64,000 bases of DNA, taken from positions 895 to 64,894 of the forward strand of contig JBMNFG010000009.1 in the NCBI GenBank assembly GCA_050949175.1, in the 5' to 3' direction. This document shows, piece by piece, positions 13,803-63,327 of this stretch (position 1 is its first letter; every line of letters starts with the position of its first letter). A model generated the notes under the pieces. That model saw nothing but the letters and a program-made list of their open reading frames with translations, searched no databases and was not told the origin of the DNA. The DNA comes from Bacillota bacterium (GTDB lineage: Bacteria; Bacillota; SHA-98; UBA4971). Both the position numbers and the translations under genes were made by a program.

Positions 13803-13989
13803 TTAAACTCACCCCCTGGGGACAAATTTGAAAAAGTGCCTGGCACAGACAGAACAGGCAGATTTCCGGTGCGTTCCTTGAGGGCTTATGCGGGCTGTGG
13901 ACTCTGATAAGTTGGGCATAGCTTCGGAAGGATCTAATCTAACCTAATCCGGATCGGTCTTGGGATATTATCGGTGCACCGGTATACTC

Positions 13990-14110
13990 ACATAAACCAA
14001 TCGCGGCAGATCAAATGTAACAAAACAACTGTCATAAATCAACTGAGCCAAACCAAATATAGCAAAGCAACTACCATAGGCCAAATGCGGCAAATCAAAC
14101 GCAACGTGTA
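13990..14110. repeat. CA-rich low-complexity tract with about 3 imperfect 30-bp repeats (CAAAT...CAAA..CAAC)
   Basis: Seen directly: ...cagatcaaatgtaacaaaacaactg...agccaaaccaaatatagcaaagcaactac...ggccaaatgcggcaaatcaaacgcaacg, in the divergent region between the ABC ATPase gene and hflX. Confidence 0.4.
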
Positions 14111-18777: not shown

Positions 18778-20286
18778 ATGTACTCTGAAGGCAACGGAGG
18801 GAACGAGGAAGGATTACACGAGTTAACTCAGGATAGCGAACACGTTCGAGTTCGGTTGAAAAAGCTGGAAACCCTCCGGGCTAAAGGCATCGATCCTTTC
18901 GGAGCAAGATTCGAGCGAACTCATCTCAGTAAAGAAATTATAGACGATTTTTCCAGCCTTGAGGGAAGCACCGTGAAAATAGCAGGCCGGATAATGGCAA
19001 TGCGCACTCACGGTAAGGCAACTTTCGCAGATATCATGGATCTCTCCGGGCGAATCCAACTCTATGCAAAAGTTGATTCCTTAGGTGAGGACGCCTATGA
19101 GCTTTTCACATCTTTGGATATCGGCGATATTATAGGTGTCATAGGCAAGGTGTTCCGCACCAGGAGGGGAGAAGTAAGCATTGAGATAGACGAGTTTACT
19201 CTCCTTTGTAAATCCCTCCGCCCGTTGCCTGAGAAGTGGCATGGCCTCGTTGATGTGGATCTTCGATACAGGCACCGGCATCTAGACCTTATAGTCAATC
19301 CCGATGTCAGGCGGGTCTTTCTCCAGCGCACAGCTATAATCAAGGCGATCAGGGAATTCCTTGATTCCCGGGGTTACATAGAAGTTGAGACGTCTTCTTT
19401 GCACCCCATTCCCGGAGGAGCAAGTGCAAGGCCTTTCATTACACACCACAATGCCCTTGATATGGACCTCTATATGCGGATCGCTCTGGAGCTCCACCTA
19501 AAGCGTCTGATCGTAGGCGGGCTGGAGAAAGTCTACGAGATCGGCCGCGTATACAGAAATGAAGGAATATCAACTAAGCACAATCCTGAATTCACCATGC
19601 TTGAGCTTTATGAAGCTTACGCGGATTATACCGATATGATGAATATTGCCGAAAACCTCATCCACCATGTAGCCGTTAAGGTGCTGGGTGCCCCTGTGGT
19701 AAAGTGCGGAGGCATGGAAATAGATCTTACGCCACCTTGGCCAAGGCTGACTATGGTCGATGCGGTTACGAAGTATACAGGTGTAGACTTTACTAAGATC
19801 GAGACTGATGAGGACGCGCTTTCTGCTGCTGATTCCTTGGGCGTTGAAATAGCAGGAAAAGACAGTTCCCGTGGGGCTGTTCTGGCGGAGATCTATGATA
19901 AGCTGGTAGAACCGAGACTCATGACGCCTACCTTTATCATCGACTATCCGATAGAGGTATCGCCCCTTGCCAGAAGAAAGAAAGATGATCCTCGTTATAC
20001 TTACAGGTTCGAATTGATTATCTGCGGCCGTGAAATGGCGAACGCATTCAGCGAGCTAAATGACCCGATCGATCAGCGGAAACGCTTCGCGGCCCAGGTT
20101 TCGCTGCGCGATAAAGGCGATGAAGAAGCCCATATGATGGATGAGGACTTCTTGTTTGCCCTTGAACACGGTATGCCGCCGACAGGAGGCATGGGGATTG
20201 GGATTGACAGATTGGTGATGCTCATTACCAATCAGGAATCAATCAGAGATGTAATCCTGTTCCCGACGATGCGTCCGCGTGCTTAG
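18778..20286 (+). CDS. lysS: Lysine--tRNA ligase (class II)
   Basis: 502 aa. OB anticodon-binding domain followed by class II core motifs ([17 protein letters not shown]). Confidence 0.95.
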
Positions 20287-33981: not shown

Positions 33982-34314
33982 GAAGCATACAAGGGTTACC
34001 GGTTTTGTCTCTACATGACATACTTATTTATCTGATATGAGAAACAGACTGCCTGTTTACTTTGTGTAAACAGGCGAGGGGACAGCAGCGGGCACATCAA
34101 ACCTAGAGTCAGCGCCGCATGAAGGAGCCGGGTTGCGCCCCACGCTTTGCCGCTTAATCCTGAGAAGTCCACGATGAAATGCACTAAATCCACTATGAAA
34201 TGCACCATGAGATCCAATGTACTCTTAACCTAAGTTGGCGTTTTACAGGGCACCCTGTAGGAAAGACTAGGCTATAGAAGTGGTTCGCGCTGGAACAAGA
34301 GGTGTAAGGATAGA

Positions 34315-35952: not shown

Positions 35953-36047
35953 GGAGAGATACCCAAGCTGGCTGAAGGGGAAGGTTTGCTAAACCTTTAG
36001 GCGGTTTAACAAGCCGCGCGGGGGTTCGAATCCCCCTCTCTCCGCCA
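35953..36047 (+). tRNA. tRNA-Ser (anticodon GCU), type II
   Basis: GGAGAGATACCCAAGCTGG...anticodon stem-loop AAGGT-TTGCTAA-ACCTT...long variable arm...GGGGGTTCGAATCCCCCTCTCTCCGCCA. The 5' end could be 1-2 nt earlier. Confidence 0.85.
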
Positions 36048-36082
36048 TATTATTTGTCTTGCATATCATTTGTCTTGTCCGA

Positions 36083-50142: not shown

Positions 50143-50586
50143 CTCGAGAGATCCCTCCTTCTTTCAACACGCACCTTAGAGGCACCGAACGTTCGCGATT
50201 ACTGCGGATTCCATCATACATGATGCTGTTGATTGAACTGCTCCGGTCTGTTTTTTGGTGTTGGCTACATTCTCATATATTAACGGGAGAACTGTCAAGG
50301 CGTTGCCGGGACTTATGTAGTCGGCTTCTGATAATGTCATTCATTGGTTTTTCATATTGATGCTTATTCCGGCAAGGATTACAATAGTTATGAACATATG
50401 ATTAATACTGTGTTGCCATGGCCATTACGACCATACAGGTAGTTTGCGTTCTTTGTTGAATCGGGTAAGATTCATATCGGGAAGTGTCGGTGTCACTTTC
50501 CAAGTTTGAGATATAAACAAGAGCTTGTGTTTTCTCCGCAATGTATTTATGATGCAGGAAGATGCGAAAGAAGGATGAGTTGCAAT

Positions 50587-50985
50587 ATGTTTTATAATGA
50601 GAAGGTCCTGGAGCATTTCTTGAACCCTAAGAACGTCGGTGAGATTGAAGACGCAGACGGAGTCGGGATAATAGGCGATCCCGGGTGCGGTGACTGTATA
50701 AAGGTTTTCATCAAGGTCAAGGATAGACGGATTGATGACATCAAGTTTAAGGTTTACGGATGTCCTGCTGCAATCGGAACCAGCAGCATAACGACGGAGC
50801 TTGCCAAAGGTAAGACTCTGGACGAAGCTTTTCAGATCAGTAATGAAGATGTTGTTGAAGCACTAGGCGGTCTCCCGGACCCCAAAATCCATTGCTCCGT
50901 TTTGTGCCCCGCTGCGCTCAGGCTGGCTATTCTCGATTATGTTGCAAAGCTGAAAGAGAAGAAGATTAAGGAGAAGCAAGCCTAA
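50587..50985 (+). CDS. nifU: IscU/NifU-like Fe-S cluster scaffold protein
   Basis: Start at MFYNEKVLEHFLNPKNVG; conserved cluster-ligand Cys (GDPGCGD, YGCPAAIG, HCS). Confidence 0.85.
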   Translation: MFYNEKVLEHFLNPKNVGEIEDADGVGIIGDPGCGDCIKVFIKVKDRRIDDIKFKVYGCPAAIGTSSITTELAKGKTLDEAFQISNEDVVEALGGLPDPKIHCSVLCPAALRLAILDYVAKLKEKKIKEKQA

Positions 50986-51188
50986 GCATTGATTCGGCTG
51001 AGTCAGATCCTGCCGCTTAGGATGCCGTCGCTGAGTGCAGGATAAGCTGCAGAAAAGCCTACGCATCCTTAAAGGCGCCCTGCAAAGCACGATGTTTTCT
51101 ACAACTAATGGTCTGTTCAGGGTATATCAGACGATAGTTCTCTCTTCGCAAAAGCCAGCTGATAGGTTCAGATAGCCTTTGTTTGCTT

Positions 51189-52300
51189 GAATGGCTCTTT
51201 CCAAGGGCCATTCTTTTCTGTTTTAGACCCTATTTGCTCCTGATTGGCTTCCGCCGAGAGCCATTCCGAAGCTTCCGTGAACTTCTGTAGGTTTAAGTGG
51301 CTTATGTAGGGAGCCACTAAGAGCCGTCTAAAGGTTTCTCAGCAAGCGAATGGCTCGTCAGAAGAGCCATTTGGGCTAGTTTTGAGCCTATTTGAGGCTT
51401 CACTGGCGATCGAATGGTTTGCACCATGAGCCATTTCGGCCCGTTTTCGGCACTTATGATTGCTGAATGGCTTCCACCGTAAGCCAATCGTAGGGGTATT
51501 ACTCTGATACTACTCGTGTTCGTGTAGCGGTATGGCTCATGTGAGGAGCCAATCTAGGCGGTTTGAAGGGCTTTCGGCGGTGGAATGGCTTACGACGTGA
51601 GCCATTTATGCTAGTTCCGGTGCTGTTTGGTGGAAGAATGGCTCACTCAGAGAGCCGGTTCCGGCGATCCGTGGACGTTCATGGGACGTTTATGCATCCA
51701 AATGGCTCATACAGTAAGCCAAGTAAGGTGATTTGGGCTCATTTTGACAGTGCCATGGCTCTTCTCATGAGCCATTTGTGCTCCTTTTCGCGTTTCATGG
51801 CTGAAGGATGGCTCATGTGGAGAGGCAATGAGGTTCGTTTAGAGAGCCTTTGGCGGGAGGTTGGCTCATCTTGTGAGCCGAACAACGAGTTTCGAGAGCT
51901 TTTGTGACTCGGAATGGCTTATGTGATAAGCCATTCCGAGCCTTTTGGCGGTTTTTCAGGTACGATTCGGCTCATTATGAGAGCCATTTACGCCTCCTGA
52001 CGCATCATTGCACTGAAGGATGGCTCACGTGGTGAACCAAGCAAAGCGGCCGGGAAGCTTTTCAGGGACTTATTGGCTCTTCCCGTGAGCCAATAACACT
52101 TGCTTTAGGCTTTCTTGGGTACCTAATGGCTCTCCCTGTGAGCACGTCAAGAGGTTTTAGGCGGTTGTAGACGCTTTTAGGCGGTTGTAGATACTTTACC
52201 GTACGGAAACAGCTCGTGCGGTGAGCCGTTCTGACCTGTTTGAGGCTATCTTGCATGTGGAGTGGCCCCCAACATGAGCCAGTGAAGGAATCTTAGAGGC
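51189..52300. repeat. Array of about 19-20 degenerate tandem units (53 bp, occasionally 64-65 bp), each with a 21-25 bp palindrome [R]AATGGCTC-N7-GAGCCATT[Y]
   Basis: Unit starts read at 51189, 51242, 51295, 51348, 51412, 51465, 51530, 51583, 51636, 51700, 51753, 51806, 51859, 51912, 51964, 52018, 52071, 52124, plus degenerate copies near 52205 and 52260. Inverted-repeat arms are conserved; the 7-nt core spacer and the 28-bp inter-site segments are variable but related. Confidence 0.9.
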
Positions 52301-52334
52301 TTCCGTCTGTTAGAGCAGCTTACGTGGAAGTATG

Positions 52335-52369
52335 AAAAATCCGGCCCGTCGCTTGCGGGCCGGATTTTC
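52335..52369 (-). terminator. Bidirectional intrinsic terminator downstream of the LysM-protein gene
   Basis: AAAAAT-CCGGCCCG-tcgcttg-CGGGCCGG-ATTTT; a second GC hairpin GGCGCCCCAGCAGGGGCGCC follows at about 52375-52396. Confidence 0.6.
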
Positions 52370-52461
52370 CCTAAGGCGCCCCAGCAGGGGCGCCCCCCCT
52401 GACTGGAATGAGTTTATCTCGAAGTCTTCAGCCTCAGACATGAGTTCATTCTGAGACGGAT

Positions 52462-53487
52462 TTATCTCGGAATGACCAGCCTCTGGCCTGCCCAGATGAC
52501 ATTAGCGTCTGTAATGCCATTCGCACTCATCAGGGCCTGAAGCGACACACCGTAGCGGTTTGCAATAGCCCAAAGTGTATCTCCGGGTTCTACGATGTGA
52601 GTCCTGGTGCCGGTGCCGCTTCCTGTTCCTGCAGGAATGCCGCTACCGCCTGTCCCCGGATTGGGTACCCATGGGTTACCGTTCTGGATGATTATCACTT
52701 GGCCTGCCCACAGGGCATTCGCGTTTATCCCCGGGTTTAGTTCAATAAGCTTATAGACGGTTACACCGTACCTTGATGATATTGCCCAGAGTGTGTCTCC
52801 CGGACGCACATAGTAGACAACACGTCCACCCGTCCCCTGACCCGGATGATTGGTAACAGGCGGGCCCGGAACCTTATATTCTGGGGTCACGTCATAAGCT
52901 GCTATTGTAGGACCGTTCTTTCCCCAGTATGTGAAGGAGGTCTTAGCCTGCTTTGCAATGGATGCTGCCTCCCAGGCGTCGGTGATCTCACGTACGCTGT
53001 TGATTGTCCAGATCATCCGCGCTCCGGAACCGAAGGGCTGGATTAGCTGGACAACGTAAGCCCGTCTTCCGTGCTGTACCAGGACCTTTGCTTCAGCGGT
53101 TCCTGAGTACTGGCCTTTTTCTACCTTGCTGAACAGTGTAAAGGTATCTGTAGACGGATTCAGGCCAAGATTCTGCCCTTCGATTCGGGCAACCTGAACT
53201 GGGTCAAGCCTCCACTGGTGCTGACCTCGGTTTACCTGCATCTGCACTCTCCACAGAGCCTGCCAGTCGATTGTTACAGGTCCTGTAGTGACTGTTGACT
53301 CAGGTTGGGTGTTTCCGGTGTAGTACACCTGCCCATTTTGTCCTGCCCTGAATGATGGGTGGACAGGCAATCCGCCTCCGGACTTCTGTACAGTTGATTC
53401 TTGTGCCAGGGTTGTCATTGTCATCGATGCAACCATGGCGATTACAAGTATTATTGAAGTTACAAAGTACTTCTTAAGATTAAACAA
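52462..53487 (-). CDS. Secreted/membrane-anchored protein with two C-terminal LysM peptidoglycan-binding domains
   Basis: TTG start with GGGGAG RBS; N-terminal TM/signal (YFVTSIILVIAMVASMTMTTLA). Two LysM repeats (YYVRPGDTLWAISSRYGVTVYKLIELNP...; HIVEPGDTLWAIANRYGVSLQALMSANG...). Confidence 0.8.
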   Translation of the reverse strand: MFNLKKYFVTSIILVIAMVASMTMTTLAQESTVQKSGGGLPVHPSFRAGQNGQVYYTGNTQPESTVTTGPVTIDWQALWRVQMQVNRGQHQWRLDPVQVARIEGQNLGLNPSTDTFTLFSKVEKGQYSGTAEAKVLVQHGRRAYVVQLIQPFGSGARMIWTINSVREITDAWEAASIAKQAKTSFTYWGKNGPTIAAYDVTPEYKVPGPPVTNHPGQGTGGRVVYYVRPGDTLWAISSRYGVTVYKLIELNPGINANALWAGQVIIIQNGNPWVPNPGTGGSGIPAGTGSGTGTRTHIVEPGDTLWAIANRYGVSLQALMSANGITDANVIWAGQRLVIPR

Positions 53488-53690
53488 AGAACATCTCCCC
53501 TTCTGCGGCAGAAGCCGCCCAGGTAAAGTATGATATTAAGGGTGTTGTCACCCTCCTGGCTATGATATATATCCAGCGTAAGGGTGTCACCCCACAAATG
53601 ATTCCACAATATGAAAAGAGCGGAACTGGGATTTATACTGCTTGGCTAGCATAAGATCCTTTTGAAGGGACTTAAGAATTCGCAGCGAAC

Positions 53691-53815
53691 TCTTATCTTG
53701 AGGATGTCTTATGTTTTTAGGCTGTCCTATGTCTTGAGAATATCTTATGTTGTTAGAATGTCCTGTGTCTTGAGGATGACTTATCTCTTGAGGATGTCTT
53801 GGGTTCTGAGAAAAC
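53691..53815. repeat. Tandem array of 7 x 18-bp units (TCTTATGTCTTGAGGATG-like)
   Basis: tcttatcttgaggatg / tcttatgtttttaggctg / tcctatgtcttgagaata / tcttatgttgttagaatg / tcctgtgtcttgaggatg / acttatctcttgaggatg / tcttgggttctgagaaaa. Generates a spurious hexapeptide-repeat ORF on the minus strand. Confidence 0.8.
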
Positions 53816-53867
53816 AACCATGACTATCCGAACCTTACGACCAGCCGAAAACGGTATGTAAGAACAG

Positions 53868-54118
53868 TATGTGTACGTTAGCCGACAAGAGCGTGGACTT
53901 AGTACAAGATGTATGGGCTAATCGACTGGAGCGCAGACATAGTACACCATTTATAGACTAGCCTACAAGAGCGCGGATATAGTACACGATGTATACACTG
54001 GCCGATAAGACCGCGGATACAGTACATGATGTATAGACTGACCGACAAGAGTGTGGCTATAGTGCACGAGACCATGGATGCAGTACAGACATATTGGCTG
54101 GAACGAGCATGGATAGTC
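53868..54118. repeat. Tandem array of about 6 x 42-bp units (..GCCGACAAGAGCGYGGAYWTAGTACAMGATGTATAGACT..)
   Basis: Six successive about-42-bp blocks sharing CAAGAGCG, TAGTACA and ATGTATAGACT cores, ending about 20 bp before hutH. Confidence 0.8.
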
Positions 54119-54137
54119 TTAGGAAAGGGAGACTGAG

Positions 54138-55649
54138 GTGTCGAAAGTATTTATCGACGGCAGGACTCTTACTTATGAAGATGTAGTCGCGGTTGCGCGC
54201 GGCTACAAAAGTGTAGACATCGCCTCTGAAGTGCGCGACCAGGTTGAGAGAACCCGCCGGGTATTAGAGGATATTTTAGCTCAAGACAGAGTGATCTACG
54301 GAGTCAACACCGGCTTCGGCCATCTTGCTTCCGTCCGGATCTCCGATGAAGAGCTTTGCAAGCTGCAGGAGAACCTCATTATCAGCCATGCGGCAGGAAC
54401 AGGCGATCCTTTCCCTGATGAAGTAGTCAGGGCTATGATTCTTCTCCGCGCCAACTCCCTGGCAAGAGGCCTATCCGGGGTTAGATACGAGCTTATCGAG
54501 GCGTTGGTGTCCCTTGCAAACCACGATATTTGCCCGATCATCCCTGAGCAGGGGTCTCTTGGAGCATCCGGCGATCTCGCACCCCTTGCGCACCTGGCCC
54601 TCGCCCTCCTCGGCAAGGGGAAGGTCAGGATGGGCGGCATGCTTATGGACGCAGCTCTAGCCTTGGAGCGAGCCGGAATATCTCCTCTTACACTCATGCC
54701 CAAAGAAGGAATAGGCCTTATAAACGGCACACAGGCTATGACTGCAGTGGGTGCTATCGCGCTCTATGATGCTGTAGTGCTGGCAATAACCGCTGATGCT
54801 GCGGCATCCATGTCCATTGAAGCGCTGCGAGGGATTCCCGATGCTTTCCGCCCCTGTCTCCACCAGGCCAGACCTCATCAGGGCCAGATGGAGTGCGCAG
54901 AGTTCATCAGCAGATTGCTTGAAGGAAGCCGGCTTGTCAGTGCCCCGGGCGAGCTCCGAGTCCAGGATGCGTATTCTATAAGATGTATCCCTCAAGTTCA
55001 TGGAGCTACCAGAGATGTCTTGGAATATGTAAGGAAAGTAATCAATACGGAAATAAACTCAGTCAGCGACAATCCCCTGGTTTTCCCCGACGGTCAAGTG
55101 ATTTCAGCAGGCAATTTCCACGGACAGCCTGTAGCGTTGGCTATGGATTTTCTGTCAATTGCCACAGCTGAGCTTGGGAACATATCCGAGAGGCGCATTG
55201 AGCGGTTATTGAATCCGGCTTTATCCGGGCTTCCGCCTTTTCTCGCTGTGCAAGGCGGTATTAACAGCGGTTTCATGATTTCTCAATACACTGCCGCATC
55301 ACTAGTGTCTGAGAATAAGGTCCTCTCGGCACCTGCAAGCACAGATTCGATTCCGGTATCCGCATCCCAGGAAGACCATGTGAGCATGGGGACGATTGCC
55401 GCTCGTAAGGCCAGGGCAGTAGTGAAGAACGTGGCTCGAATCCTTGCTATTGAACTTATGTGTGCCTGCCAGGCGCTGGAGTTTCAAGGCCCTGAAAAAC
55501 TGGCTCCCGGGACTCGCAGGATTTATGACTTGGTCCGCCAGGTTCTGCCTTCGCTTGAAGAAGACAGGTGGCTGCATCCTGATATTGAGGCTGTTACTGA
55601 ACTGGTTGCCGAAGGCCGGATAGCCGAAGTTGCTGTGGCTGCCGGCTAG
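54138..55649 (+). CDS. hutH: Histidine ammonia-lyase (aromatic amino-acid ammonia-lyase family, MIO cofactor)
   Basis: 503 aa, GTG start with GGGAG RBS. MIO-forming triad in GSLGASGDLAPLAH; typical HAL blocks (YGVNTGFG, NPLV, FHGQP). Confidence 0.9.
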   Translation: MSKVFIDGRTLTYEDVVAVARGYKSVDIASEVRDQVERTRRVLEDILAQDRVIYGVNTGFGHLASVRISDEELCKLQENLIISHAAGTGDPFPDEVVRAMILLRANSLARGLSGVRYELIEALVSLANHDICPIIPEQGSLGASGDLAPLAHLALALLGKGKVRMGGMLMDAALALERAGISPLTLMPKEGIGLINGTQAMTAVGAIALYDAVVLAITADAAASMSIEALRGIPDAFRPCLHQARPHQGQMECAEFISRLLEGSRLVSAPGELRVQDAYSIRCIPQVHGATRDVLEYVRKVINTEINSVSDNPLVFPDGQVISAGNFHGQPVALAMDFLSIATAELGNISERRIERLLNPALSGLPPFLAVQGGINSGFMISQYTAASLVSENKVLSAPASTDSIPVSASQEDHVSMGTIAARKARAVVKNVARILAIELMCACQALEFQGPEKLAPGTRRIYDLVRQVLPSLEEDRWLHPDIEAVTELVAEGRIAEVAVAAG

Positions 55650-55749
55650 AGGCCATCGGCAATGTGGCGAAGGATCCCCTGTTGCACTTTGCCGAAGAAT
55701 GGTTTAAGATTTAGACAAAAGTAAATAACCAACAGTAGATCTTCGGGGC

Positions 55750-55880
55750 AGGGTGAGGCTGGAGTCTCCAGCCAATTCCCGACCGGTGGTAATGCCGAAA
55801 GGTAAGTCCACGAGCTGCAAATGCGGTTGAGCCGGTGAGATGCCGGCACCGACGGTAAAGTCCGGATGGGAGAAGGCCTC
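55750..55880 (+). promoter_or_regulatory. Candidate cobalamin-riboswitch-like structured leader (tentative)
   Basis: Segments CCGGTGAGATGCCGG, CACCGACGGTAAAG and GGGAGAAGGC resemble the GGTGAAAATCC / CCCGCNACTGTAA / GGGAAGGC core of Cbl riboswitches. The B12-box GCCACTG and the GGGAA block upstream of GGTG are not evident, so the call is weak. A perfect 17-nt hairpin GGCTGGAGTCTCCAGCC sits just upstream. Confidence 0.25.
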
Positions 55881-55928
55881 AAGCAGATTGAATGCGCTTG
55901 CTGCTGCTTGGAACTGGTTGAAATTTGA

Positions 55929-55964
55929 GCCCTGAGGTCTACCGCCCAGGGCTTCATTTTTTGG
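55929..55964 (+). terminator. Putative intrinsic terminator (expression-platform-like) in the hutH/ECF-S intergenic region
   Basis: GCCCTG-aggtctaccgcc-CAGGGC followed by TTCATTTTTTGG. Confidence 0.4.
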
Positions 55965-56185
55965 CACACTGTCAGTTTACGAGCCGGTGTACTCAGAATC
56001 ACCGCACTTTGTTGGTATGCTTTGTCGATATACTTTGTTGGTATCAGAGAAGCAGGCATGCATCCTGGGCCCGGCATCCGGAGAGCGCGGTTCAGTGTGC
56101 GAGACAGCGTTCCGGATTAGTGTGCTAACCAGGGGTAACGCTCTGAAGCCCGGGCGGGCAAGGCAACATAAGGAGGTTGTTCAGA

Positions 56186-56773
56186 TTGATCAATCAAAAG
56201 ACCAAAAGGATTGTTATGCTAGGTGTTCTTGCTTCCATAGCAGTTCTCCTATCCCTTGCCAACTGGCCTCTGTTTCCATCAGCGCCACATCTTCGCTTTG
56301 AAACGGCTGACGTGCCAGTATTGATTGCCGGGTTCGCCTTCGGTCCGGCAGCAGGGTTATCCGTTGCCTTTGTCATGGCAGTCTTAATGGCTGCGATCAC
56401 AGGCCTTGACGGAGCAGTGGGAGCATTCATGCATTTTTTGAGCACAGGCAGTCTGGTGCTGGCTGCAAGCCTCGTGTACAGGCGCCATCACACACTAAAA
56501 GGAGCGATAGCAGGTCTCTTCTCAGGCACTCTCGCGCACACCATAGTCATGCCGCTTGTGAACCTGACAATCGTTCCGTTAATATACGGCTTCTCAAGAG
56601 AGCAAGTGGTGCACATGCTGCCTATACTCTTTGCTTTCAACGCTGTCAAAGCCGGGTTGAACTCGATTGTTACGTTCCTCGTTTATAAACGAGTATCCTG
56701 GTTCATTAAAGGCCTTCTGGCAGGCGACAAAGCTAACCGGTTTGCCGAGCAAGTGCAAAAACCTTCTACTTAG
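56186..56773 (+). CDS. ECF-transporter substrate-specific (S) component, possibly cobalamin-type (CbrT-like)
   Basis: About 195 aa from TTG 56186 (AGGAGG 9 nt upstream); 6 TM with a small polar N-terminus. No A/T ECF modules nearby. CbrT assignment is inferred only from the upstream Cbl-like leader. Confidence 0.5.
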   Translation: MINQKTKRIVMLGVLASIAVLLSLANWPLFPSAPHLRFETADVPVLIAGFAFGPAAGLSVAFVMAVLMAAITGLDGAVGAFMHFLSTGSLVLAASLVYRRHHTLKGAIAGLFSGTLAHTIVMPLVNLTIVPLIYGFSREQVVHMLPILFAFNAVKAGLNSIVTFLVYKRVSWFIKGLLAGDKANRFAEQVQKPST

Positions 56774-56935
56774 TTCATAGGCTCGGCAGTTAGTTCAGAA
56801 GCCCGGCTATTTAGTTCATAGGCTCAGCAGTCCAGTGGAGGATCTTGGCCATCTTGTCCATCTAGTTCGGAGCTTGGGTAGTTAGTTCAGAGCCTGCTCG
56901 TTCACATCAGAAGCTCGGAGGTTTAGTTCAAAGAT
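56771..56935. repeat. Tandem array of about 7 x 20-22-bp units (TAGTTCAnAGGCTCGGCAG-like), beginning at the stop codon of the ECF-S gene
   Basis: tagttcataggctcggcagt / tagttcagaagcccggctat / ttagttcataggctcagcag / ctagttcggagcttgggtag / ttagttcagagcctgctcg / ttcacatcagaagctcggagg / tttagttcaaagatgcggc. Confidence 0.75.
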
Positions 56936-56978
56936 GCGGCAATGCCTCGGTGAGGTGATGCCGCATCTTCTGTTTTCA
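56933..56978 (+). terminator. Intrinsic terminator after the ECF-S gene and repeat array
   Basis: GATGCGGCA-atgcctcggtgaggtga-TGCCGCATC followed by TTCTGTTTTC. Confidence 0.6.
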
Positions 56979-57221
56979 TATGAGTATGAAATTTCCCCAG
57001 ATTCCATATATATATACCACTCTTCGGCAGGATTATCGGTCTAATGTACCGAATACCTAACGATGCTTGACGTATGGCGTTGTAAGGGATAGACTCTATA
57101 AAAACAGAAAACCGCTTTCGGAGGTGATAAATGCAGGTACCTCAATAGAGCATAGGATAGAGTCTTTATGAGAGCTATCTCAATCAACCATTAAGTAGAT
57201 TAAAGAAGGGGAGTAGATATA

Positions 57222-58343
57222 ATGAGAAAGTTTGTAATCGGTTTATTGGTCGTAGCATTTCTTGTCAGCGCAATAGGTGTAGTCGGAACTGCAGCTCCTG
57301 CGTATAAGATCGGAATCGTCACCGGAACGGTCTCGCAGGGCGAAGATGAGTACCGCGGCGCAGAGAAAATGAAGGCTAAGTACGGCGACATGATAAAGCA
57401 CGTCATCTATCCGGACAACTTCATGCAGGAACAGGAGACCACAATAGCCCAGATCACAGGTCTTGCTGCAGATCCGGATGTCAAAGCGATTGTTGTCAAC
57501 CAGGCAGTTCCGGGCACAGTTGCAGCCATCAGGCAGGTACGGGAAATTCGTCCGGATATCATTTTCCTTCTGGGCGTTCCCCACGAAGATCCTGAGCTTG
57601 TTTCCGATACTGCAGACCTTTCCTTTGAAACAGACCAGGAAAGGCGTGGAGTGACGATTGTTCAGCTTGCGAAAGAACTTGGCGCTGAGAAGTTCCTCCA
57701 CTATTCATTCCCCAGGCATATGGCTATGCCGCTTCTGGCGAAGCGCGCCGACATCATGAAAGAGGAAGCCGAGAGGCTCGGAATTGAGTTCATCTTTGCA
57801 ACTGCTCCTGACCCAATGGGTGAGTACGGCATACCCGGTGCTCAGCAGTTCATCCTTGAGGATGTGCCGAGACAGGTTGAGAAGTATGGCAAGAATATTG
57901 CACTATTCAGCACCAACTGCAGCATGCAGGAGCCTCTTATCATTTCAGCACTGAACACAGGCGCAATCTTCCCTGAGCAGTGCTGCCCGAGCCCAACTCA
58001 TGGTTACCCTGCAGCTCTGGGTCTTGAGATTACCGACGAGATGAAGGGTAATATCCCGGCAATCCTCAAGGCAATCAACGACGCCATTGTTGAAAAGGGC
58101 GGAGCAGGAAGGTTTGCCACATGGCCAGTCCCCACCAACTACCTCCTTGTCGAGGCTTGCGTGGAGATAGCCCGTGACACGATCGAAGGGAAGATGGAGC
58201 TTAGCGACCTGGACGCTGTCAAAGCCAGGTTAGAGGCTGCAGCCGGTGTTCCCATGGAGCTCCGTAGGCTTCCTGAGAAGCCAGATGGTAATTTCTATCT
58301 ATTAACAAGCGGCTCTGTCGTTTTCGGGAGAGATGAATTCTAA
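57222..58343 (+). CDS. ABC transporter substrate-binding lipoprotein/periplasmic protein (type I PBP fold, DUF3798-like)
   Basis: 373 aa, signal peptide MRKFVIGLLVVAFLVSAIGVVGTAAPA, then YKIGIVTGTVSQGEDEY... First gene of an SBP-ATPase-permease-permease operon. Family name from memory. Confidence 0.5.
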   Translation: MRKFVIGLLVVAFLVSAIGVVGTAAPAYKIGIVTGTVSQGEDEYRGAEKMKAKYGDMIKHVIYPDNFMQEQETTIAQITGLAADPDVKAIVVNQAVPGTVAAIRQVREIRPDIIFLLGVPHEDPELVSDTADLSFETDQERRGVTIVQLAKELGAEKFLHYSFPRHMAMPLLAKRADIMKEEAERLGIEFIFATAPDPMGEYGIPGAQQFILEDVPRQVEKYGKNIALFSTNCSMQEPLIISALNTGAIFPEQCCPSPTHGYPAALGLEITDEMKGNIPAILKAINDAIVEKGGAGRFATWPVPTNYLLVEACVEIARDTIEGKMELSDLDAVKARLEAAAGVPMELRRLPEKPDGNFYLLTSGSVVFGRDEF

Positions 58344-58507
58344 CCTTATGCAAGCGGTCCTTAGATGAGGTACAGGGGTGCCGGGTAATCCACACCCGGT
58401 ACCCTTGCCTTTTTGAGGTGCACGAAGGGTGGACATACCAATTGAGTTAGAATTTGCTTTTAGTCCTCCCAGTTGAGCTTGTACTGATAGAAGGGAAGAG
58501 CAAAAAC

Positions 58508-60118
58508 ATGGAACGAGCACGACGAGTCCTGGAAATGAAGGGTATCACAAAGCAATACTTCGGGAATACCGTCTTAAACAATGTCTCCATTGACCTTTAT
58601 CCCGGTGAAATTCATGCCCTCGTCGGTGAAAATGGGGCAGGCAAGTCCACACTCATGAACATCCTTTTCGGTATGCCTGTCATCCACAGCACAGGCGGCT
58701 TCTCCGGAGAGGTCCTGATTGACGGTGAAAAAGTGGAGCTTATGTCTCCTGCTGAAGCCATGCAGGCAGGTATCGGCATGGTTCACCAGGAGTTCATGTT
58801 GTTACCCGGGTTTACAATCACAGAGAACATCAAGCTTAATCGAGAGCCCACAACCAAGAACGCTCTTAGTAGGCTGTTTCGATCTAAGTCCCTTGACTAT
58901 CTTGATGTTCCCACTATGCGCAAAGACGCCAGAGCGGCTCTGGACCGTCTTGACCTCGCTATTGATGAATGGGCGCCTGTTGCAGGCCTCCCTGTAGGTT
59001 ATATGCAGTTCATTGAGATTGCCAGAGAGATTGACAAAAAGGAAGTCAGAATCCTCGTCTTTGATGAACCTACTGCTGTTCTCACTGAGACCGAGGCTGA
59101 TCGTCTCTTGGAGTCCCTTCGCCGGCTTGCTGCAGACGGAATCGCCATTTTGTTCATCACCCACCGTCTGGATGAAGTAATGGCTGTAGCAAACAGGATC
59201 ACAGTGCTTCGCGACGGTGAGACTGTAGCAAGGCTGAATAGGGATGAAGCAGTTGTTGAGCGTATAGCCGAATTGATGGTGGGAAGGAAAGTAGAAAAAG
59301 TGGAGCTTCCTCCACGCGCCAAAGAGCCAAGCGATGAGGATATTGCTCTCACAATAGATAACCTCGTAGTGGATATGCCTGGCGAGATGGTTCGCGGATT
59401 GTCTCTGTCTGTGCGGCGCGGCGAGATCCTTGGAATCGGGGGGCTTGCAGGCCATGGGAAACTGGGTATCGCCAACGGGATAATGGGACTTTATCCTGCA
59501 TCCGGCCGAGTCAGCAAGAATGGTGAAAACATACCGCTTAATTCACCTGAAGAGGCCTTGTCACGAGGGCTGGCATTTGTTTCTGAAGACAGGCGCGGAG
59601 TCGGCCTCTTGCTGAACGAACCCATCGATCGCAATATCGGGGTCACTGCTATGCAGGTCCAGCATAAATTCCTCAAGTCCTGGCCGCATTTCTTACCTGC
59701 GCTGAGGCTGGAAGATCGAGCGGAACTCAGGGCTTATGCTGAGGACATGATCCGTAAACTGGACATAAGATGCCTTGGCCCGAATCAGCCTGTCAGGAGC
59801 CTTTCCGGGGGCAATCAGCAGAAAGTGTGTATAGCCAAGGCCCTTGCCCTGGAGCCTGAGATCCTCTTCGTTTCCGAACCGACACGGGGTATTGACGTCG
59901 GTGCCAAAAGGCTTGTTTTGGATCTTTTGGTCCGGCTTAACAGAGACCATAATGTAACGATAATCATGACATCCAGCGAGCTTGGAGAGCTCAGAAAAGT
60001 ATGCGACAGAGTCGCTATTGTGTATCGTGGAAGGCTCGCCGGGATACTGCCGCCTGATGCCTCTGACGCCGAGTTCGGATTGATGATGGCAGGCAGAGTC
60101 GGGAAGGAGGCGGTCTAG
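58508..60118 (+). CDS. ABC transporter ATP-binding protein with duplicated ATPase domains (CUT2/BMP-type importer)
   Basis: Start at MERARRVLEMKGITKQYFG. Domain 1 Walker A GENGAGKSTLM; domain 2 GLAGHGKLG; signature LSGGNQQKV; ends 3 nt before the permease. Confidence 0.85.
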   Translation: MERARRVLEMKGITKQYFGNTVLNNVSIDLYPGEIHALVGENGAGKSTLMNILFGMPVIHSTGGFSGEVLIDGEKVELMSPAEAMQAGIGMVHQEFMLLPGFTITENIKLNREPTTKNALSRLFRSKSLDYLDVPTMRKDARAALDRLDLAIDEWAPVAGLPVGYMQFIEIAREIDKKEVRILVFDEPTAVLTETEADRLLESLRRLAADGIAILFITHRLDEVMAVANRITVLRDGETVARLNRDEAVVERIAELMVGRKVEKVELPPRAKEPSDEDIALTIDNLVVDMPGEMVRGLSLSVRRGEILGIGGLAGHGKLGIANGIMGLYPASGRVSKNGENIPLNSPEEALSRGLAFVSEDRRGVGLLLNEPIDRNIGVTAMQVQHKFLKSWPHFLPALRLEDRAELRAYAEDMIRKLDIRCLGPNQPVRSLSGGNQQKVCIAKALALEPEILFVSEPTRGIDVGAKRLVLDLLVRLNRDHNVTIIMTSSELGELRKVCDRVAIVYRGRLAGILPPDASDAEFGLMMAGRVGKEAV

Positions 60119-60120
60119 AC

Positions 60121-61161
60121 ATGACAGATAAGCTTAAACAGACTGTTGAGCATATAGGCATTCCACGGCTGATGATTGCCGGATTTCTTGCGGTCATATT
60201 TGTCACAGCATACATTACCGGTATGTCTGTGCCTCAGCTGCTTTCCGACTCTCTTGTCAGAGTCGGGATGAACGGCATACTTGTCCTGGCAATGGTTCCG
60301 ACGATAAGCTGCGGGGTCGGTCTCAATTTCGGCCTGCCGCTGGGAGTGCTTTGCGGCCTTGTGGGTGGCCTCATCAGCATGGAGCGAGGTTTCGTGGGCT
60401 TTCCCGGATTCTTCGCTGCTATCGCCTTTGCGGTTCCCCTGGCAGTAGTCGTAGGATATCTTTATTCGGTGCTCTTGGAAAGCGTAAAAGGCCAAGAGAT
60501 GATGGTAGGGACCTATGTAGGATTTTCCTCTGTAGCAGTCATGTGTATCTTCTGGCTGATGGCGCCGTTTAGAAACCCTGAACTCATATGGGCTATCGGA
60601 GGAAAAGGGCTGAGGTCCACTTTGACCTTGGGCAATTATTACGGAAAGGTCCTTAATAACTTCGCTGTATTTGAAATCTTCGGGATTAAGATTTCCGGAG
60701 GGCTTATAGGGTTCTTCTTGTTATTCTGCTTGCTTGTCTACTTGTTCTTCAGGACGAAGCTGGGCATAGCTATGTTGACAGCCGGAGCAAATCCAGTGTT
60801 TGCTAAATCTGCGGGTATAGATGTACGCAGGATGAAATCGGTAGGGATCATCGCTTCTACCGTTCTGGCGGCCATAGGCATCATAGTGTATGCGCAAAGC
60901 TACGGATTTCTTCAGCTTTATATGGCGCCTCTGATGATGGCGTTTCCGGCAATAGCTGCGATCCTCATTGGCGGAGCCAGCTTGCAGAGGGCGACCATAC
61001 TTAATGTCATTATAGGAACTGTGCTGTTTCAAACCTTGTTAACTACCGCTCTGCCTGTTACAAGCAGAGTGATTCAGGGTGATATTTCAGAGGTAGCCAG
61101 GCTGATTATTTCAAACGGCATGATCCTTTACGCGTTGACGCGGTCGACAGGGGGTAAGTAG
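60121..61161 (+). CDS. ABC transporter permease (BPD_transp_2, branched-chain/sugar type)
   Basis: 346 aa, 8-10 TM; immediately follows the ATPase. Confidence 0.8.
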   Translation: MTDKLKQTVEHIGIPRLMIAGFLAVIFVTAYITGMSVPQLLSDSLVRVGMNGILVLAMVPTISCGVGLNFGLPLGVLCGLVGGLISMERGFVGFPGFFAAIAFAVPLAVVVGYLYSVLLESVKGQEMMVGTYVGFSSVAVMCIFWLMAPFRNPELIWAIGGKGLRSTLTLGNYYGKVLNNFAVFEIFGIKISGGLIGFFLLFCLLVYLFFRTKLGIAMLTAGANPVFAKSAGIDVRRMKSVGIIASTVLAAIGIIVYAQSYGFLQLYMAPLMMAFPAIAAILIGGASLQRATILNVIIGTVLFQTLLTTALPVTSRVIQGDISEVARLIISNGMILYALTRSTGGK

Positions 61162-61164
61162 CAA

Positions 61165-62295
61165 ATGATACAAAGTCCTGAGCAGAAGAAAGTCGAATCA
61201 GGCCGAGATGTCAGCTTGGATATGCGACATATAGTCCGAACCAACGGTGTGCCCATATTATTCCTTGCACTCTCCATTACCATGGCGGCGGTTGCAGGGC
61301 TTAGTCCCGCCTTTCTCATGAACGAGGTTATAACCAGGTTTGCCCGTAACTCGCTTTTGGTATTATCGCTTTTGATTCCGGTAACTGCAGGGATGGGGCT
61401 AAACTTTAGTATAGTAATCGGTGCAATGTCAGCACAGGCTGCTGCGATCGCAGTGACCTTGTGGGGTATCAAAGGTGTTTCTGGATTCCTAACGGCTTGC
61501 TTACTGGCAACGCCGCTGGCGGCGATTACCGGATGCCTTGCAGGACTGGTCTTGAACCGTGCAAAGGGACGCGAAATGATTACCAGCATGATACTGGGCT
61601 TCTTCGCCAACGGTATTTATCAGCTGATTTTCTTGTTCCTTGTGGGATCTGTGATTCCGTTTAACAGTAAGTCAATGCTGCTGCCTCAAGGGGTTGGCGT
61701 GAGGAATACTGTTGACCTTATCAATATCGCCCAGTCTCTTGACAAGATCTGGAGGCCTGTAATCAGCGGAGTGCGTATTCCCGTTGTTACAGTGCTTGTC
61801 TCTTTAGGAATGTGCGTGGTTATCACGTTCTTGCTGAGGACGAAGATCGGCCAGGACCTTCGTGCGGTGGGCCAAGATATGAATATAGCTGAGGTAATGG
61901 GTATCAAAGTGGATAAGACCAGGATCATCGCTATGATTCTCTCTACGGTGATAGCAGCCTGGGGACAGTTGGTGTTCTTGCAGAACATCGGCACACTGAA
62001 TACCTATAACAGCCATGAGCAGGTTGGTATGTTCTCTATAGCGGCTCTCCTTGTAGGAGGGGCGTCAACCAGGCGCGCTACGATTTTCCAGGCGTTAATC
62101 GGTGTTATCCTCTTCCATACGCTCTTTGTTGTCTCGCCTCTCGCAGGGCAGAAGCTGTTCGGAGTGCCGCAGATCGGCGAGTACTTCCGTGTATTCGTAG
62201 CTTACGGCATTATCGCTGTTGCTTTGGCTATCCATGCCTGGCAGGATAGGCAGATGCGGAAAGAGGCTATTCGTGAGGCTGTGCTTACTGAGTAA
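61165..62295 (+). CDS. ABC transporter permease (second BPD_transp_2 subunit)
   Basis: 376 aa polytopic; paralogous to the previous gene. Confidence 0.8.
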   Translation: MIQSPEQKKVESGRDVSLDMRHIVRTNGVPILFLALSITMAAVAGLSPAFLMNEVITRFARNSLLVLSLLIPVTAGMGLNFSIVIGAMSAQAAAIAVTLWGIKGVSGFLTACLLATPLAAITGCLAGLVLNRAKGREMITSMILGFFANGIYQLIFLFLVGSVIPFNSKSMLLPQGVGVRNTVDLINIAQSLDKIWRPVISGVRIPVVTVLVSLGMCVVITFLLRTKIGQDLRAVGQDMNIAEVMGIKVDKTRIIAMILSTVIAAWGQLVFLQNIGTLNTYNSHEQVGMFSIAALLVGGASTRRATIFQALIGVILFHTLFVVSPLAGQKLFGVPQIGEYFRVFVAYGIIAVALAIHAWQDRQMRKEAIREAVLTE

Positions 62296-62350
62296 AGCGC
62301 AAAGCAAAGCGCAGAGCAAAGCGCAGAGCAAAACTCAGAGCAAAGCGGGT
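62295..62350. repeat. 12-bp tandem repeat (AAGCGCAGAGCA) x about 4.5, directly after the permease stop codon
   Basis: aagcgcaaagca aagcgcagagca aagcgcagagca aaactcagagca aagcgggtcag. Confidence 0.7.
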
Positions 62351-62535
62351 CAGTCAGTGCCTTCCGAAGTGGTAGTCCGTCCGGATCAGCCGCTAACTCT
62401 TGAATGAACCGCAAACTTAACCTGTGCTGAACTATGCTTTAGAGGCGCTCTACTTCATAAGACATGAAGGAAGTGGGGTGCTTCTTTTTGTGTTTCCTGT
62501 GGGGCTTCTGCTTTTCTTTCTAGTTTCTTAGTGTC

Positions 62536-63327
62536 TTATCGTTGTACTGCTGATTCGTTTGCGATTATTGCTGCACCGTATGCACCTGCAAACTGAGACA
62601 TTTCAGGGACCGTGACTTTGAGTGCAAGTTTCTTCTCAAGTGAGAGCCTGACTCCTTCGTTTTTGCTGACTCCGCCGGTCATGACGACACGAGGGACAAG
62701 CCCGACTCTGTGGATCATTCCAAGGAGCCTTTCAGCTACTGCATCGCATAACCCGCGGATAATCGTATCAAGGGCAATCCCCGCAGACAGCAGGCTGATT
62801 ACCTCAGACTCAGCAAATACTGTGCATGTGCTTGAGATATTAGCCGGTCTTTTTGCAGTCTTCCACATACGCCCGAAGTCGAAAAGGGACACGCCCAGAC
62901 GTTCAGCCATCACCTCAAGGAACCTACCTGTCCCTGCAGCACATTTATCATTCATTACAAAGTCGGCTACCATTCCGTCTTCATCAAGACGGATGACTTT
63001 GGAGTCTTGACCGCCGATATCTATTATGAGACGGGCTCCGGAGGCCAAAGCTTTAGCTCCGCGGCTGTGGCACGTGATTTCCGTGACTGTCTTGTCTGCC
63101 TCTTTAACCTGGGTGCGTCCGTAACCTGTTGAGACAGTGTAGAGGACATCCTTTTTGGTGAGTCCTCTGTCTTTGAGCAGCCCTTCTATGCACTCTTCAG
63201 CAGTAATACTAAGTTCAGTTCCTGTAGGCAGCATGAAGGTGGATACGATGTTTCCATCTGAAAGGAGGACTCCTTTGGTCACTGAAGATCCCACATCAAT
63301 TCCCATCACATATGAGCCGGTTCTCAA
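62536..63327 (-). CDS. hgdC: 2-hydroxyacyl-CoA dehydratase activator / BcrAD-BadFG-family ATPase (archerase, [4Fe-4S])
   Basis: ASKHA motifs (MGIDVGSSVTKGVLL; DIGGQDSKVI; VMTGGVSKN). Start at TTG 63327 or ATG 63306. Confidence 0.8.
   Translation of the reverse strand: MRTGSYVMGIDVGSSVTKGVLLSDGNIVSTFMLPTGTELSITAEECIEGLLKDRGLTKKDVLYTVSTGYGRTQVKEADKTVTEITCHSRGAKALASGARLIIDIGGQDSKVIRLDEDGMVADFVMNDKCAAGTGRFLEVMAERLGVSLFDFGRMWKTAKRPANISSTCTVFAESEVISLLSAGIALDTIIRGLCDAVAERLLGMIHRVGLVPRVVMTGGVSKNEGVRLSLEKKLALKVTVPEMSQFAGAYGAAIIANESAVQR

Follow-up and report, generated by a model that had tools for sequence, protein, structure and literature searches.

An 11-kb stretch in the genome of an uncultured member of the Bacillota contains seven genuine tandem arrays, which are of two different kinds. 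The stretch is part of a 64,000-nucleotide piece of DNA (referred to below as the window; positions 895 to 64,894 of contig JBMNFG010000009.1, assembly GCA_050949175.1), and the source species is recurrent, judged by sample names, in anaerobic-digester and biogas metagenomes. One array consists of 53-bp units with a palindromic core and is a member of a family dispersed over many loci; the six others have short units (12, 13, 18/36, 20, 20 and 40 bp) that are mutually unrelated. Taken together, the observations are probably best read as six private, fossil arrays next to one dispersed, helically phased 53-bp array, with the appearance of a repeat hotspot being due mainly to the array density of the clade and to a stretch that is rich in intergenic DNA.

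Arrays were detected with Tandem Repeats Finder (TRF) and with an independent lag-based detector. The palindrome array (51190-52283, 21 units of 53 bp) is too degenerate for TRF and was delimited by a motif scan; one of its linkers holds a duplication of 20 bp x 2.2 with 91% match (52155-52197; TRF). The divergent intergenic region between the genes for a LysM-domain protein and a hutH-like ammonia-lyase contains an array of 18/36 bp x 5.8 (53696-53800; unit match 71-79% by TRF), inserted after a conserved block (…gaattcgcagcgaa…), and, 5' of hutH, an array of 40 bp x 4.8 (53879-54069, with degenerate edges at 53861-54110; 74%); both were seen with TRF and with the lag detector. The remaining three arrays are given on the forward strand. 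An array of 13 bp x 3.0 (56006-56044; TRF; 76%) lies within an 81-bp presence/absence segment in the leader of ribU, the gene for the S component of an energy-coupling factor (ECF) transporter. The 3' untranslated region (UTR) of ribU contains a 20-bp array of about seven units (56770-56935; 74%), in which three clean units (56770-56831, the part reported by TRF) are followed by a 32-bp interruption and about four degenerate units to about 56935, recognized by eye and with the lag detector; it ends at the ribU terminator (56931-56977). An array of 12 bp x 4.8 (GAGCAAAGCGCA; 62290-62347; TRF; 84%) starts with the last codon and the stop codon (GAG TAA) of the second permease gene of an ABC importer and is inserted between that stop codon and a conserved terminator. 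The arrays occupy a 3' region between convergent genes, a promoter region between divergent ones, a 5' leader and, twice, a 3' UTR, and the genes concerned, 5' of which or in the UTRs of which the arrays lie, are lysM, hutH, ribU and the permease gene. Outside this stretch the window contains a weak, degenerate 14/42-bp array 5' of hflX (13986-14105), a weak 12/21-bp array 5' of a major facilitator superfamily (MFS) transporter gene (34165-34210) and a repeat of 16 bp x 2 (36046-36077; TRF score of at least 50).

All arrays listed in the original prediction were recovered with TRF, the lag detector or the motif scan, with small corrections of periods and coordinates. An array reported with a period of 42 bp exists and has a period of 40 bp, and a 22-bp x 2 repeat placed at 52146-52190 is real, with a period of 20 bp at 52155-52197, and is nested in a spacer of the palindrome array instead of being an independent array. 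As had been noticed, stop codons lie within the first units of two arrays (ribU TAG, 56771-56773; permease TAA, 62293-62295). The statement that the rest of the window has essentially no arrays was nearly right: with a TRF score of at least 50 only the repeat at 36046-36077 is found, and it is the weaker arrays at 13986-14105 and 34165-34210 that depart from it. The view that the arrays do not form one mobile repeat family holds for the small arrays and fails for the palindrome array, which belongs to a dispersed family. No second copy of any short array was found in the window or in more than 200 fetched loci (blastn-short, self matches only); a shared mobile family behind the short arrays was rejected on these grounds and on their mutual unrelatedness.

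The behavior of the short arrays among strains was followed in a conspecific set of 17 further assemblies, found by exact-protein look-up, which are 98.3-99.9% identical to the window and come from different samples and pipelines (European Nucleotide Archive (ENA) metaSPAdes assemblies, Logan, NCBI metagenome-assembled genomes (MAGs) and JGI); some of them carry a type I-E cas operon. Measured from anchor to anchor, the 18-, 40-, 20- and 12-bp arrays have one and the same length in each of the 17 wherever it covers them, and in ten assemblies of the set that were compared base by base these arrays have 0 variable sites. This lack of single-nucleotide polymorphisms (SNPs) is uninformative when taken alone, because the flanking DNA is equally invariant. 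The units within each of the four arrays are 16-29% diverged; being only 71-84% alike, they are a poor substrate for ongoing slippage. It had been suggested that repeat number might tune the expression of the neighboring genes, and a strain comparison of unit numbers and a check for phase variation had been named as tests. Constant lengths, invariant sequences and diverged units give no support to switching by repeat number, no length change indicative of phase variation was found in the 17 further assemblies, and the unit numbers of the 18-, 40-, 20- and 12-bp arrays are unchanged in them. The 20-bp x 2 duplication, likewise, is present in two copies in every conspecific assembly covering it. 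An apparent 155-bp expansion of the 18-bp array in one assembly (L215) was rejected, as it is a scaffold gap of 100 N with overlapping ends.

The only polymorphisms concern a cas-island junction inside the palindrome array, described below, and an 81-bp insertion/deletion that holds the whole 13-bp array. The latter segment (55968-56048, forward strand; defined by an 11-sequence alignment and by BLAST break-points at 55967/56049) lies directly 3' of the terminator of the ribU riboswitch, and three strain alleles occur at its site, namely the 81 bp, a 13-nt A2T11 insert (one strain) and nothing. The ribU leader occurs in two SNP haplotypes, to which the alleles are linked, and ribU itself has the highest coding SNP density of the region (2.0 per 100 bp). 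Scaffold gaps or breaks are found at this site in four metagenome assemblies, which points to co-existing strains. The intergenic region of the palindrome array has the highest SNP density of all (4.5 variable sites per 100 bp), yet its length is constant.

The origin of the short arrays is illuminated by three sister species (loci L011, L012 and L062), which are syntenic with the window at about 75-90% amino-acid identity. Gene order and intergenic blocks are kept in all three and the 18-, 40-, 20- and 12-bp arrays are absent; the arrays are thus insertions between intergenic blocks that are conserved in the sister species. In its first unit the 12-bp array has GAGTAA in place of the consensus GAGCAA, and the TAG of ribU comes from the first 20-bp unit; the stop codons of ribU and of the permease gene are at the same positions in the sister species. 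Because two arrays start on an ancestral stop codon, they grew from resident sequence by local duplication and were not brought in from another place. An ancestral segment of the ribU leader (CCGGAGCAGCAYGC) is unexpanded in L062 and was amplified independently in the other two species, to 22-23-bp units in L011 and to 13-20-bp units in L012. The 20-bp duplication (91% match) is single-copy in a divergent contig (L180) and is the youngest event in the window. No relatives of intermediate divergence were found among LysM homologues, the identity of which is either at least 96% or at most 78%, and the birth of the arrays is for this reason not datable more finely.

The six private arrays (12, 13, 18/36, 20, 20 and 40 bp) would accordingly be products of locally templated duplication, by slipped-strand mispairing or unequal exchange, that arose in this species after its split from the sister species. 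Their units would since have drifted 9-29% apart, the arrays now being fixed, and they may best be regarded as decaying "fossil" minisatellites that are tolerated where spacer DNA separates conserved regulatory blocks, rather than as repeat-number switches; the short arrays would then be neutral. An elevated rate of slippage or recombination, as had been suggested for the region, agrees with these observations as far as slippage or unequal exchange as the historical origin is concerned, and disagrees with them as a present activity, since no ongoing copy-number change is seen.

Phase-variable contingency loci and variable-number tandem repeats (VNTRs), as in Neisseria, Haemophilus and Mycoplasma, consist of tandem repeats in promoters or at 5' ends of genes, with near-identical units that change in number by slipped-strand mispairing. 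The short arrays resemble them in their position in promoter regions, leaders and gene ends and in their likely slipped-strand origin. They differ in that the units are 16-29% diverged, only the 20-bp x 2 duplication reaching 91% match, and in that copy number is identical in 18 conspecific sequences, the sole length polymorphism being that of the whole 81-bp segment. Mycobacterial interspersed repetitive units (MIRUs) are intergenic minisatellites of 40-100 bp that overlap neighboring stop or start codons and are dispersed over many loci. Arrays of minisatellite size in the intergenic regions of operons are common to both systems, the 20-bp and 12-bp arrays start on the upstream stop codon, and the 53-bp family is dispersed over many loci; unlike MIRUs, the six short arrays are not one family, and no strain-to-strain variation in copy number was seen.

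The unit of the palindrome array consists of a 23-bp consensus (AATGGCTC-N7-GAGCCATT, with the core TGGCTC-N7-GAGCCA) and a linker of about 30 bp. Fifteen of the 20 spacings in the window are exactly 53 bp, followed by spacings of 64, 65, 64 and 83 bp, the last of which is due to the 20-bp duplication in that linker; solitary palindrome units were not found in the 64 kb. A search with a pattern of two phased units matched at least 118 metagenome stretches. The matches listed, to which the following counts refer, comprise at least 49 arrays of 3-21 units (at least 445 units in total) at about 44 distinct loci with unrelated neighbor genes. Spacings number 396, of which 330 measure 53 bp, another 34 are off by a single base pair (52 or 54 bp) and a further 14 fall at 63-65 bp; deviations are mostly of +10-12 bp, or about one extra helical turn. 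A second conserved motif in the linker (…ATCGACC…GGAAGCC.TCAGATCC…) gives the unit a polarity, and the array of the window is in reverse orientation with respect to the family consensus.

Regarding the 321 distinct units among the matches listed, deviations from the palindrome are one-sided (at pair 10, T.G occurs 55 times, C.A 54 times and T-A 6 times), no covariation of the stem was detected, and Watson-Crick pairs are not above the level of within-array shuffles. In a strand test, G.U-type mismatches numbered 16 on the plus strand and 14 on the minus strand. An RNA-hairpin reading of the palindromes was rejected on account of this lack of strand bias and of covariation. The arms of the palindrome appear to be independently conserved half-sites and not a selected stem, and the strict 53-bp spacing, the deviations of +10-12 bp and the missing covariation argue for phased DNA half-sites rather than hairpins. 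The 53-bp units would, on this evidence, be phased sites at which a dimeric protein binds duplex DNA, or alternatively a selfish repeat module. No recurrent neighbor protein or gene, transposases included, was found beside the arrays at the approximately 44 distinct loci among the matches listed. BLAST gave no match to the family in plasmid and phage collections, and a scan of viral contigs with the 53-bp pattern returned five contigs, four with a single pattern match and one with a two-match site, no clear array standing out among these few, on which no array scan was made. Rfam has no match to the family, and the literature searched gave only general work on repetitive extragenic palindromes (REPs), miniature inverted-repeat transposable elements (MITEs) and VNTRs.

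The 53-bp arrays of the sister species are at other intergenic positions than that of the window. In L011 (12633-13359) and L012 (2404-3364) the array lies inside a segment of 0.74-0.96 kb with inverted GGAATTCCGCA termini, inserted with a CntK/DapF-like racemase gene on one side and the ribU promoter on the other, and L062 has an empty site near 12625-12660. The GGAATTCCGCA termini also bracket arrays in L123, L156, L196 and L206. The segment bounded by them resembles a non-autonomous mobile element with the array as its cargo. Neither GGAATTCCGCA termini nor any other flanking terminal inverted repeat were found for the palindrome array in the window. In some conspecific strains (L007, 1-6719; L213, L214 and L217) a complete type I-E cas operon lies at the place taken in the window by the NifU, OEP, MFP and MacB genes. 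Homology of the cas-bearing strains to the window breaks inside the palindrome array, at 51298, and the array continues with different 53-bp units, which suggests recombination between arrays.

Several known systems share features with the 53-bp array. REP clusters, with the bacterial interspersed mosaic elements (BIMEs) built from them, and SMAG-type head-to-tail clusters are formed by extragenic palindromes (PMC2613905, PMC3733652, PMC3116915). Like these, the 53-bp array is made of an imperfect extragenic palindrome arranged head to tail, is found at many loci in many genomes and varies in unit number by locus. It is unlike them in its strict 53-bp spacing with variants of +10-12 bp, in the lack of solitary units in 64 kb, of a visible GTAG or CGTC tag in the consensus and of compensatory stem changes, and in that some copies are inside a GGAATTCCGCA-bounded segment. 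A recurrent neighboring transposase is likewise missing at the approximately 44 loci, no whole-genome search for REP-associated tyrosine transposases (RAYTs) having been made. In a more distant relative (L226; 15958-16073 and 19442-19462), short clusters of GGTGACAGGGG / CCCCCTGTCAC repeats occur in inverted orientation, another copy being beside a gene for a PF01797 Y1 transposase (19480-20241); these clusters resemble a REP/RAYT system and are unrelated to the 53-bp family.

With CRISPR arrays the 53-bp array has in common partly palindromic repeats of 23 bp, a regular spacing of about 30 bp and, in some strains, a position directly 5' of a type I-E cas3 gene. In contrast to CRISPR, its repeats depart from the consensus at 0-5 of 16 positions and have variable loops, its "spacers" share a motif and recur as a 106-bp super-period in L012, and it is common to cas-positive and cas-negative strains, which diverge by 0.1-1.7% in the part that they share. 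Cas genes are absent from the window. A genuine type I-E CRISPR beside lysM in a distant relative (L225) has the repeat GGCTACCCCGTACACGCGGGGATCGACC and a period of 61 bp, and is unrelated to the 53-bp unit. A CRISPR reading of the array was rejected in view of the degenerate repeats, the related linkers, the sharing between cas-positive and cas-negative strains and the unrelated true type I-E repeat.

Iterons and centromere-like arrays, such as plasmid parC/parS sites and replication iterons, are phased repeats bound by proteins. The 53-bp array is similar in that its period amounts nearly to a whole number of helical turns (53 bp being about 5 x 10.6), in that its variants differ by about one turn, and in that half-sites are conserved as sequence and not as base pairs. 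It is dissimilar in that the arrays are chromosomal, have no match in the plasmid and phage collections and have no recurrent partner gene beside the approximately 44 loci among the matches listed.

The local clustering of arrays is real but modest once the post hoc choice of the region is allowed for. The lag detector found 10 periodic segments in the window, seven of which are in 51.3-62.4 kb, and none in five shuffled windows; the chance control for TRF gave 0.1 arrays per shuffled window. Among intergenic regions of at least 100 bp, five of the six in 50.9-62.6 kb contain an array, versus two of the 17 elsewhere in the window (Fisher P=0.003), and six of the seven TRF arrays fall within 36% of the non-coding bases of the window (P=0.01). 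The 10 kb that adjoin the window on the right, taken from L209, add four further intergenic regions, none of them with an array. These tests are post hoc, because the region was picked for its arrays.

Array density was further expressed as TRF arrays per kb of non-coding DNA, with one procedure of masking open reading frames (ORFs) for all sets. It is 0.14 in 77 hutH loci of other Firmicutes, 0.25 in metagenome loci that matched by chance, 0.56 in the window and 0.71 in the three sister loci. In the 44 distinct loci among the matches listed, the density of other arrays near 53-bp arrays is 0.84, 0.99, 0.62 and 0.69 per kb at distances of 0-0.3, 0.3-1, 1-3 and more than 3 kb, respectively, i.e., it is high in every bin and no effect of distance was found. 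In the non-coding DNA of the clade, arrays are 4-5 times as dense as in that of other Firmicutes. An organism-wide abundance of tandem repeats, which the original prediction had named as the observation that would speak against a special locus, was thus found in part: the density is 0.6-1.0 per kb of non-coding DNA in genomes with the 53-bp family, versus 0.14 in the control. Because these genomes are array-dense, the "hotspot" is in large part a property of the whole clade, to which the many long intergenic regions add. Six arrays in 3.45 kb stand out only marginally from the clade rate (P=0.05) and strongly from the general Firmicute rate (P=1e-5). The hotspot would then result mainly from the high density of the clade and from a succession of short transcription units separated by many long intergenic regions.

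A contig of a sister species (L134) that is orthologous to 14.2-20.5 kb of the window contains a 53-bp array together with 8-, 15- and 32-bp arrays. The orthologue of the hflX-region intergenic region in L134 has the 53-bp palindrome array and the 8-bp and 15-bp arrays, and only a degenerate remnant is present in the window. Hotspots are consequently at different places in different species, the neighborhood of hflX being array-rich in L134 and not in the window. Long arrays of short units were also observed beside 53-bp arrays in other genomes (17 bp x 12, 11 bp x 10, 16 bp x 14, 14 bp x 8 and 28 bp x 5.5; loci L149 471-797, L195 1154-1413, L196 581-692 and L147 1401-1553). The 17-bp unit of L149 (GAAAGAAGCGCAAAGCG) has an 11-mer in common with the 12-bp unit of the window, which may be due to chance.

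A tentative extension, held with clearly less confidence than the joint reading given at the outset, is that the 53-bp array represents an undescribed, dispersed and helically phased module of uncultured digester Bacillota, composed of half-sites and a linker motif and in some copies enclosed in a mobile segment with inverted termini, which would form a nucleoprotein array, would serve, as the cas-island junction in the array suggests, as a substrate for recombination and the hosts of which would accumulate other arrays. As part of this proposal, the other arrays of the host genomes are taken as pointing to a shared peculiarity of replication or repair, or to an activity encoded by the element.

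A cis-regulatory function of the short arrays, as repeated operators, UP-elements, promoters or protein or RNA sites whose presence or unit number sets expression, is considered unlikely. It is true that every array adjoins a gene boundary or sits in a UTR or promoter region, that three species have an array at one place, between the terminator of the flavin mononucleotide (FMN) riboswitch and the ribosome-binding site of ribU, and that the arrays have zero SNPs in ten assemblies. The last point is uninformative, the flanks being equally invariant, and the units at the common ribU position are unrelated between the species, with the leader of L062 unexpanded. Sister species keep the genes and the intergenic blocks without the arrays, copy number is constant in the 17 further assemblies, and the occupation of all non-coding contexts (5', 3', convergent and divergent) fits a mutational process better than a single function. 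A signal of RNA structure is lacking as well: Rfam yielded no match to any array, either at the gathering threshold or at E<=1, the FMN riboswitch being the sole match in the region, and folding gave z-scores of +0.30 for the 40-bp array and -0.13 for the 20-bp array, on which structured-RNA readings of these two arrays were dropped. Far less probable is the explanation that those arrays whose period is divisible by three code for small repeat peptides or are what is left of a repeat-containing coding sequence, for example of a former (SAEQ)n tail of the permease. An ORF within the 18-bp array (53704-53823, forward strand) consists of six hexapeptide repeats of the pattern (M/L/I)S(Y/C/W)(V/L)(F/L/V)R and has 39 codons that read MSYVFR LSYVLR ISYVVR MSCVLR MTYLLR MSWVLR KQP*, with mostly synonymous or conservative changes, and the 12-bp array, read through the stop codon, gives SAKQ-SAEQ-SAEQ-NSEQ. 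Any frame that is open stays so of necessity when the period is divisible by three, however, and the common synonymous differences largely follow the history of 36-bp duplication instead of being independent events. GAGG directly abuts the ATG at 53704, which leaves no Shine-Dalgarno spacing; public gene calls leave the 18-bp array uncovered (only a 36-residue ORF abutting hutH is called, in three assemblies); the ORF has no counterpart in the sister species; and the stop codon of the permease gene is at the ancestral position in all sister species. In another forward frame the 18-bp array contains two putative mini-ORFs of eight codons, MFLGCPMS (53711-53737) and MLLECPVS (53747-53773), each 7 nt 3' of GAGG or GAGA; like the 39-codon ORF they have no homologue elsewhere. 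Creation or collapse of the arrays by short-read assembly, finally, is scarcely credible: scaffold gaps do occur beside repeats (at the 81-bp site and in the 18-bp array of L215), but the arrays are base-for-base equal in independent assemblies from ENA metaSPAdes, Logan, NCBI MAGs and JGI.

A true local mutational hotspot, in which the palindrome array or the junction of the variable island stalls replication forks and raises template switching over about 10 kb, is also judged improbable, to about the same degree as a cis-regulatory function. Several observations agree with it: the local enrichment survives normalization by intergenic regions, a 53-bp array is accompanied by several others in the hutH-ribU interval of L011 and L012 as well, the palindrome intergenic region leads in SNP density (4.5 per 100 bp) and contains the break-point of the cas island, and relatives without 53-bp arrays (L062 and L224-L226) are array-poor. 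Against it, array density does not fall with distance from 53-bp arrays in the 44 loci among the matches listed, the arrays are old and fixed so that no raised ongoing rate is seen, and to the left of 50.9 kb, from about 0.7 kb off the palindrome array, the only array with a TRF score of at least 50 is that at 36046-36077. The reading of fossil private arrays in an array-dense clade has its own difficulties. The stretch is enriched compared with the rest of the 74 kb sampled, even per intergenic region (P=0.003-0.01, post hoc), and some local cause of the clustering may contribute; a modest extra local clustering is left over. Each 40-bp unit contains a weak promoter-like match (TAGACT-18-TATAGT), and in one frame the 18-bp units differ for the most part by synonymous or conservative changes. 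The conspecifics differ by only 0.1-1.7%, and their short-read consensus sequences are blind to rare or within-population length variants. The density of the clade was measured on loci selected for a 53-bp array, and three more distant relatives (L224, L225 and L226) have few arrays and no 53-bp units, by which the excess is a feature of a narrow clade and goes along with the occurrence of the 53-bp family.

The genes around the arrays are arranged as follows. A NifU-like gene (50506-50985, forward strand) and the LysM-domain protein gene (52462-53487, reverse strand; 341 residues, PF01476) converge on the palindrome array, and the intergenic region between the LysM gene and hutH is divergent. 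The hutH-like gene for a histidine/aromatic ammonia-lyase (54138-55649; 503 residues, PF00221) is on the forward strand and is followed on that strand by the aptamer of an FMN riboswitch (55735-55881; RF00050, 102.9 bits) that controls ribU, by the terminator hairpin and T-run of the riboswitch (55928-55962) and by ribU (56177-56773; PF12822, PF07155). Because of the FMN riboswitch upstream, the ECF S component is most likely the riboflavin-specific RibU. The ABC importer operon (57222-62295, forward strand) encodes a DUF3798 binding protein, a double ATPase and two BPD_transp_2 permeases, and a gene for a 2-hydroxyacyl-CoA dehydratase activator (62536-63327) lies on the reverse strand. OEP (TolC-like) genes beside an MFP/MacB pump suggest an envelope of the diderm type. 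A CntK_N/DapF-like (histidine-racemase-like) gene is located between hutH and the ribU riboswitch in L011 (11623-12621), L012, L062, L224 and L225, and is lost entirely in the species of the window.

Two leaders near the arrays are conserved among the relatives. In the leader 5' of the DUF3798 gene (57000-57221), the blocks GCTTTGGGGGTGATAAT and TTAAGTAGATTAGGAAGGGGAGTAG are kept across four species (the window species and those of L011, L012 and L062); it has no Rfam match and may be an operator or a leader element. The 5' leader of the LysM gene (53490-53650, reverse strand) contains about 150 non-coding nucleotides that are conserved in three sister species. It folds better than 100 of 100 shuffled sequences (z -2.95), with paired GGGTG…CACCC hairpins, has no Rfam match, and is a candidate for a cis-regulatory RNA of a gene for a cell-wall-binding protein.

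The comparison of 18 conspecific sequences separates arrays that act as genetic switches from frozen by-products of slippage, and the arrays described here would be of the second kind. For annotators this means that no phase-variable flag should be set for these loci and no CRISPR call made for the palindrome array. The short arrays are ordinary, and the 53-bp family is the sole component that deserves follow-up. Two leads result. The first is a dispersed 53-bp palindromic family with five-turn phasing, which was not found in Rfam, in the plasmid and phage collections or in the literature searched; the second is a narrow clade of biogas-reactor Bacillota in whose non-coding DNA tandem arrays are 4-5 times as dense as in that of other Firmicutes.

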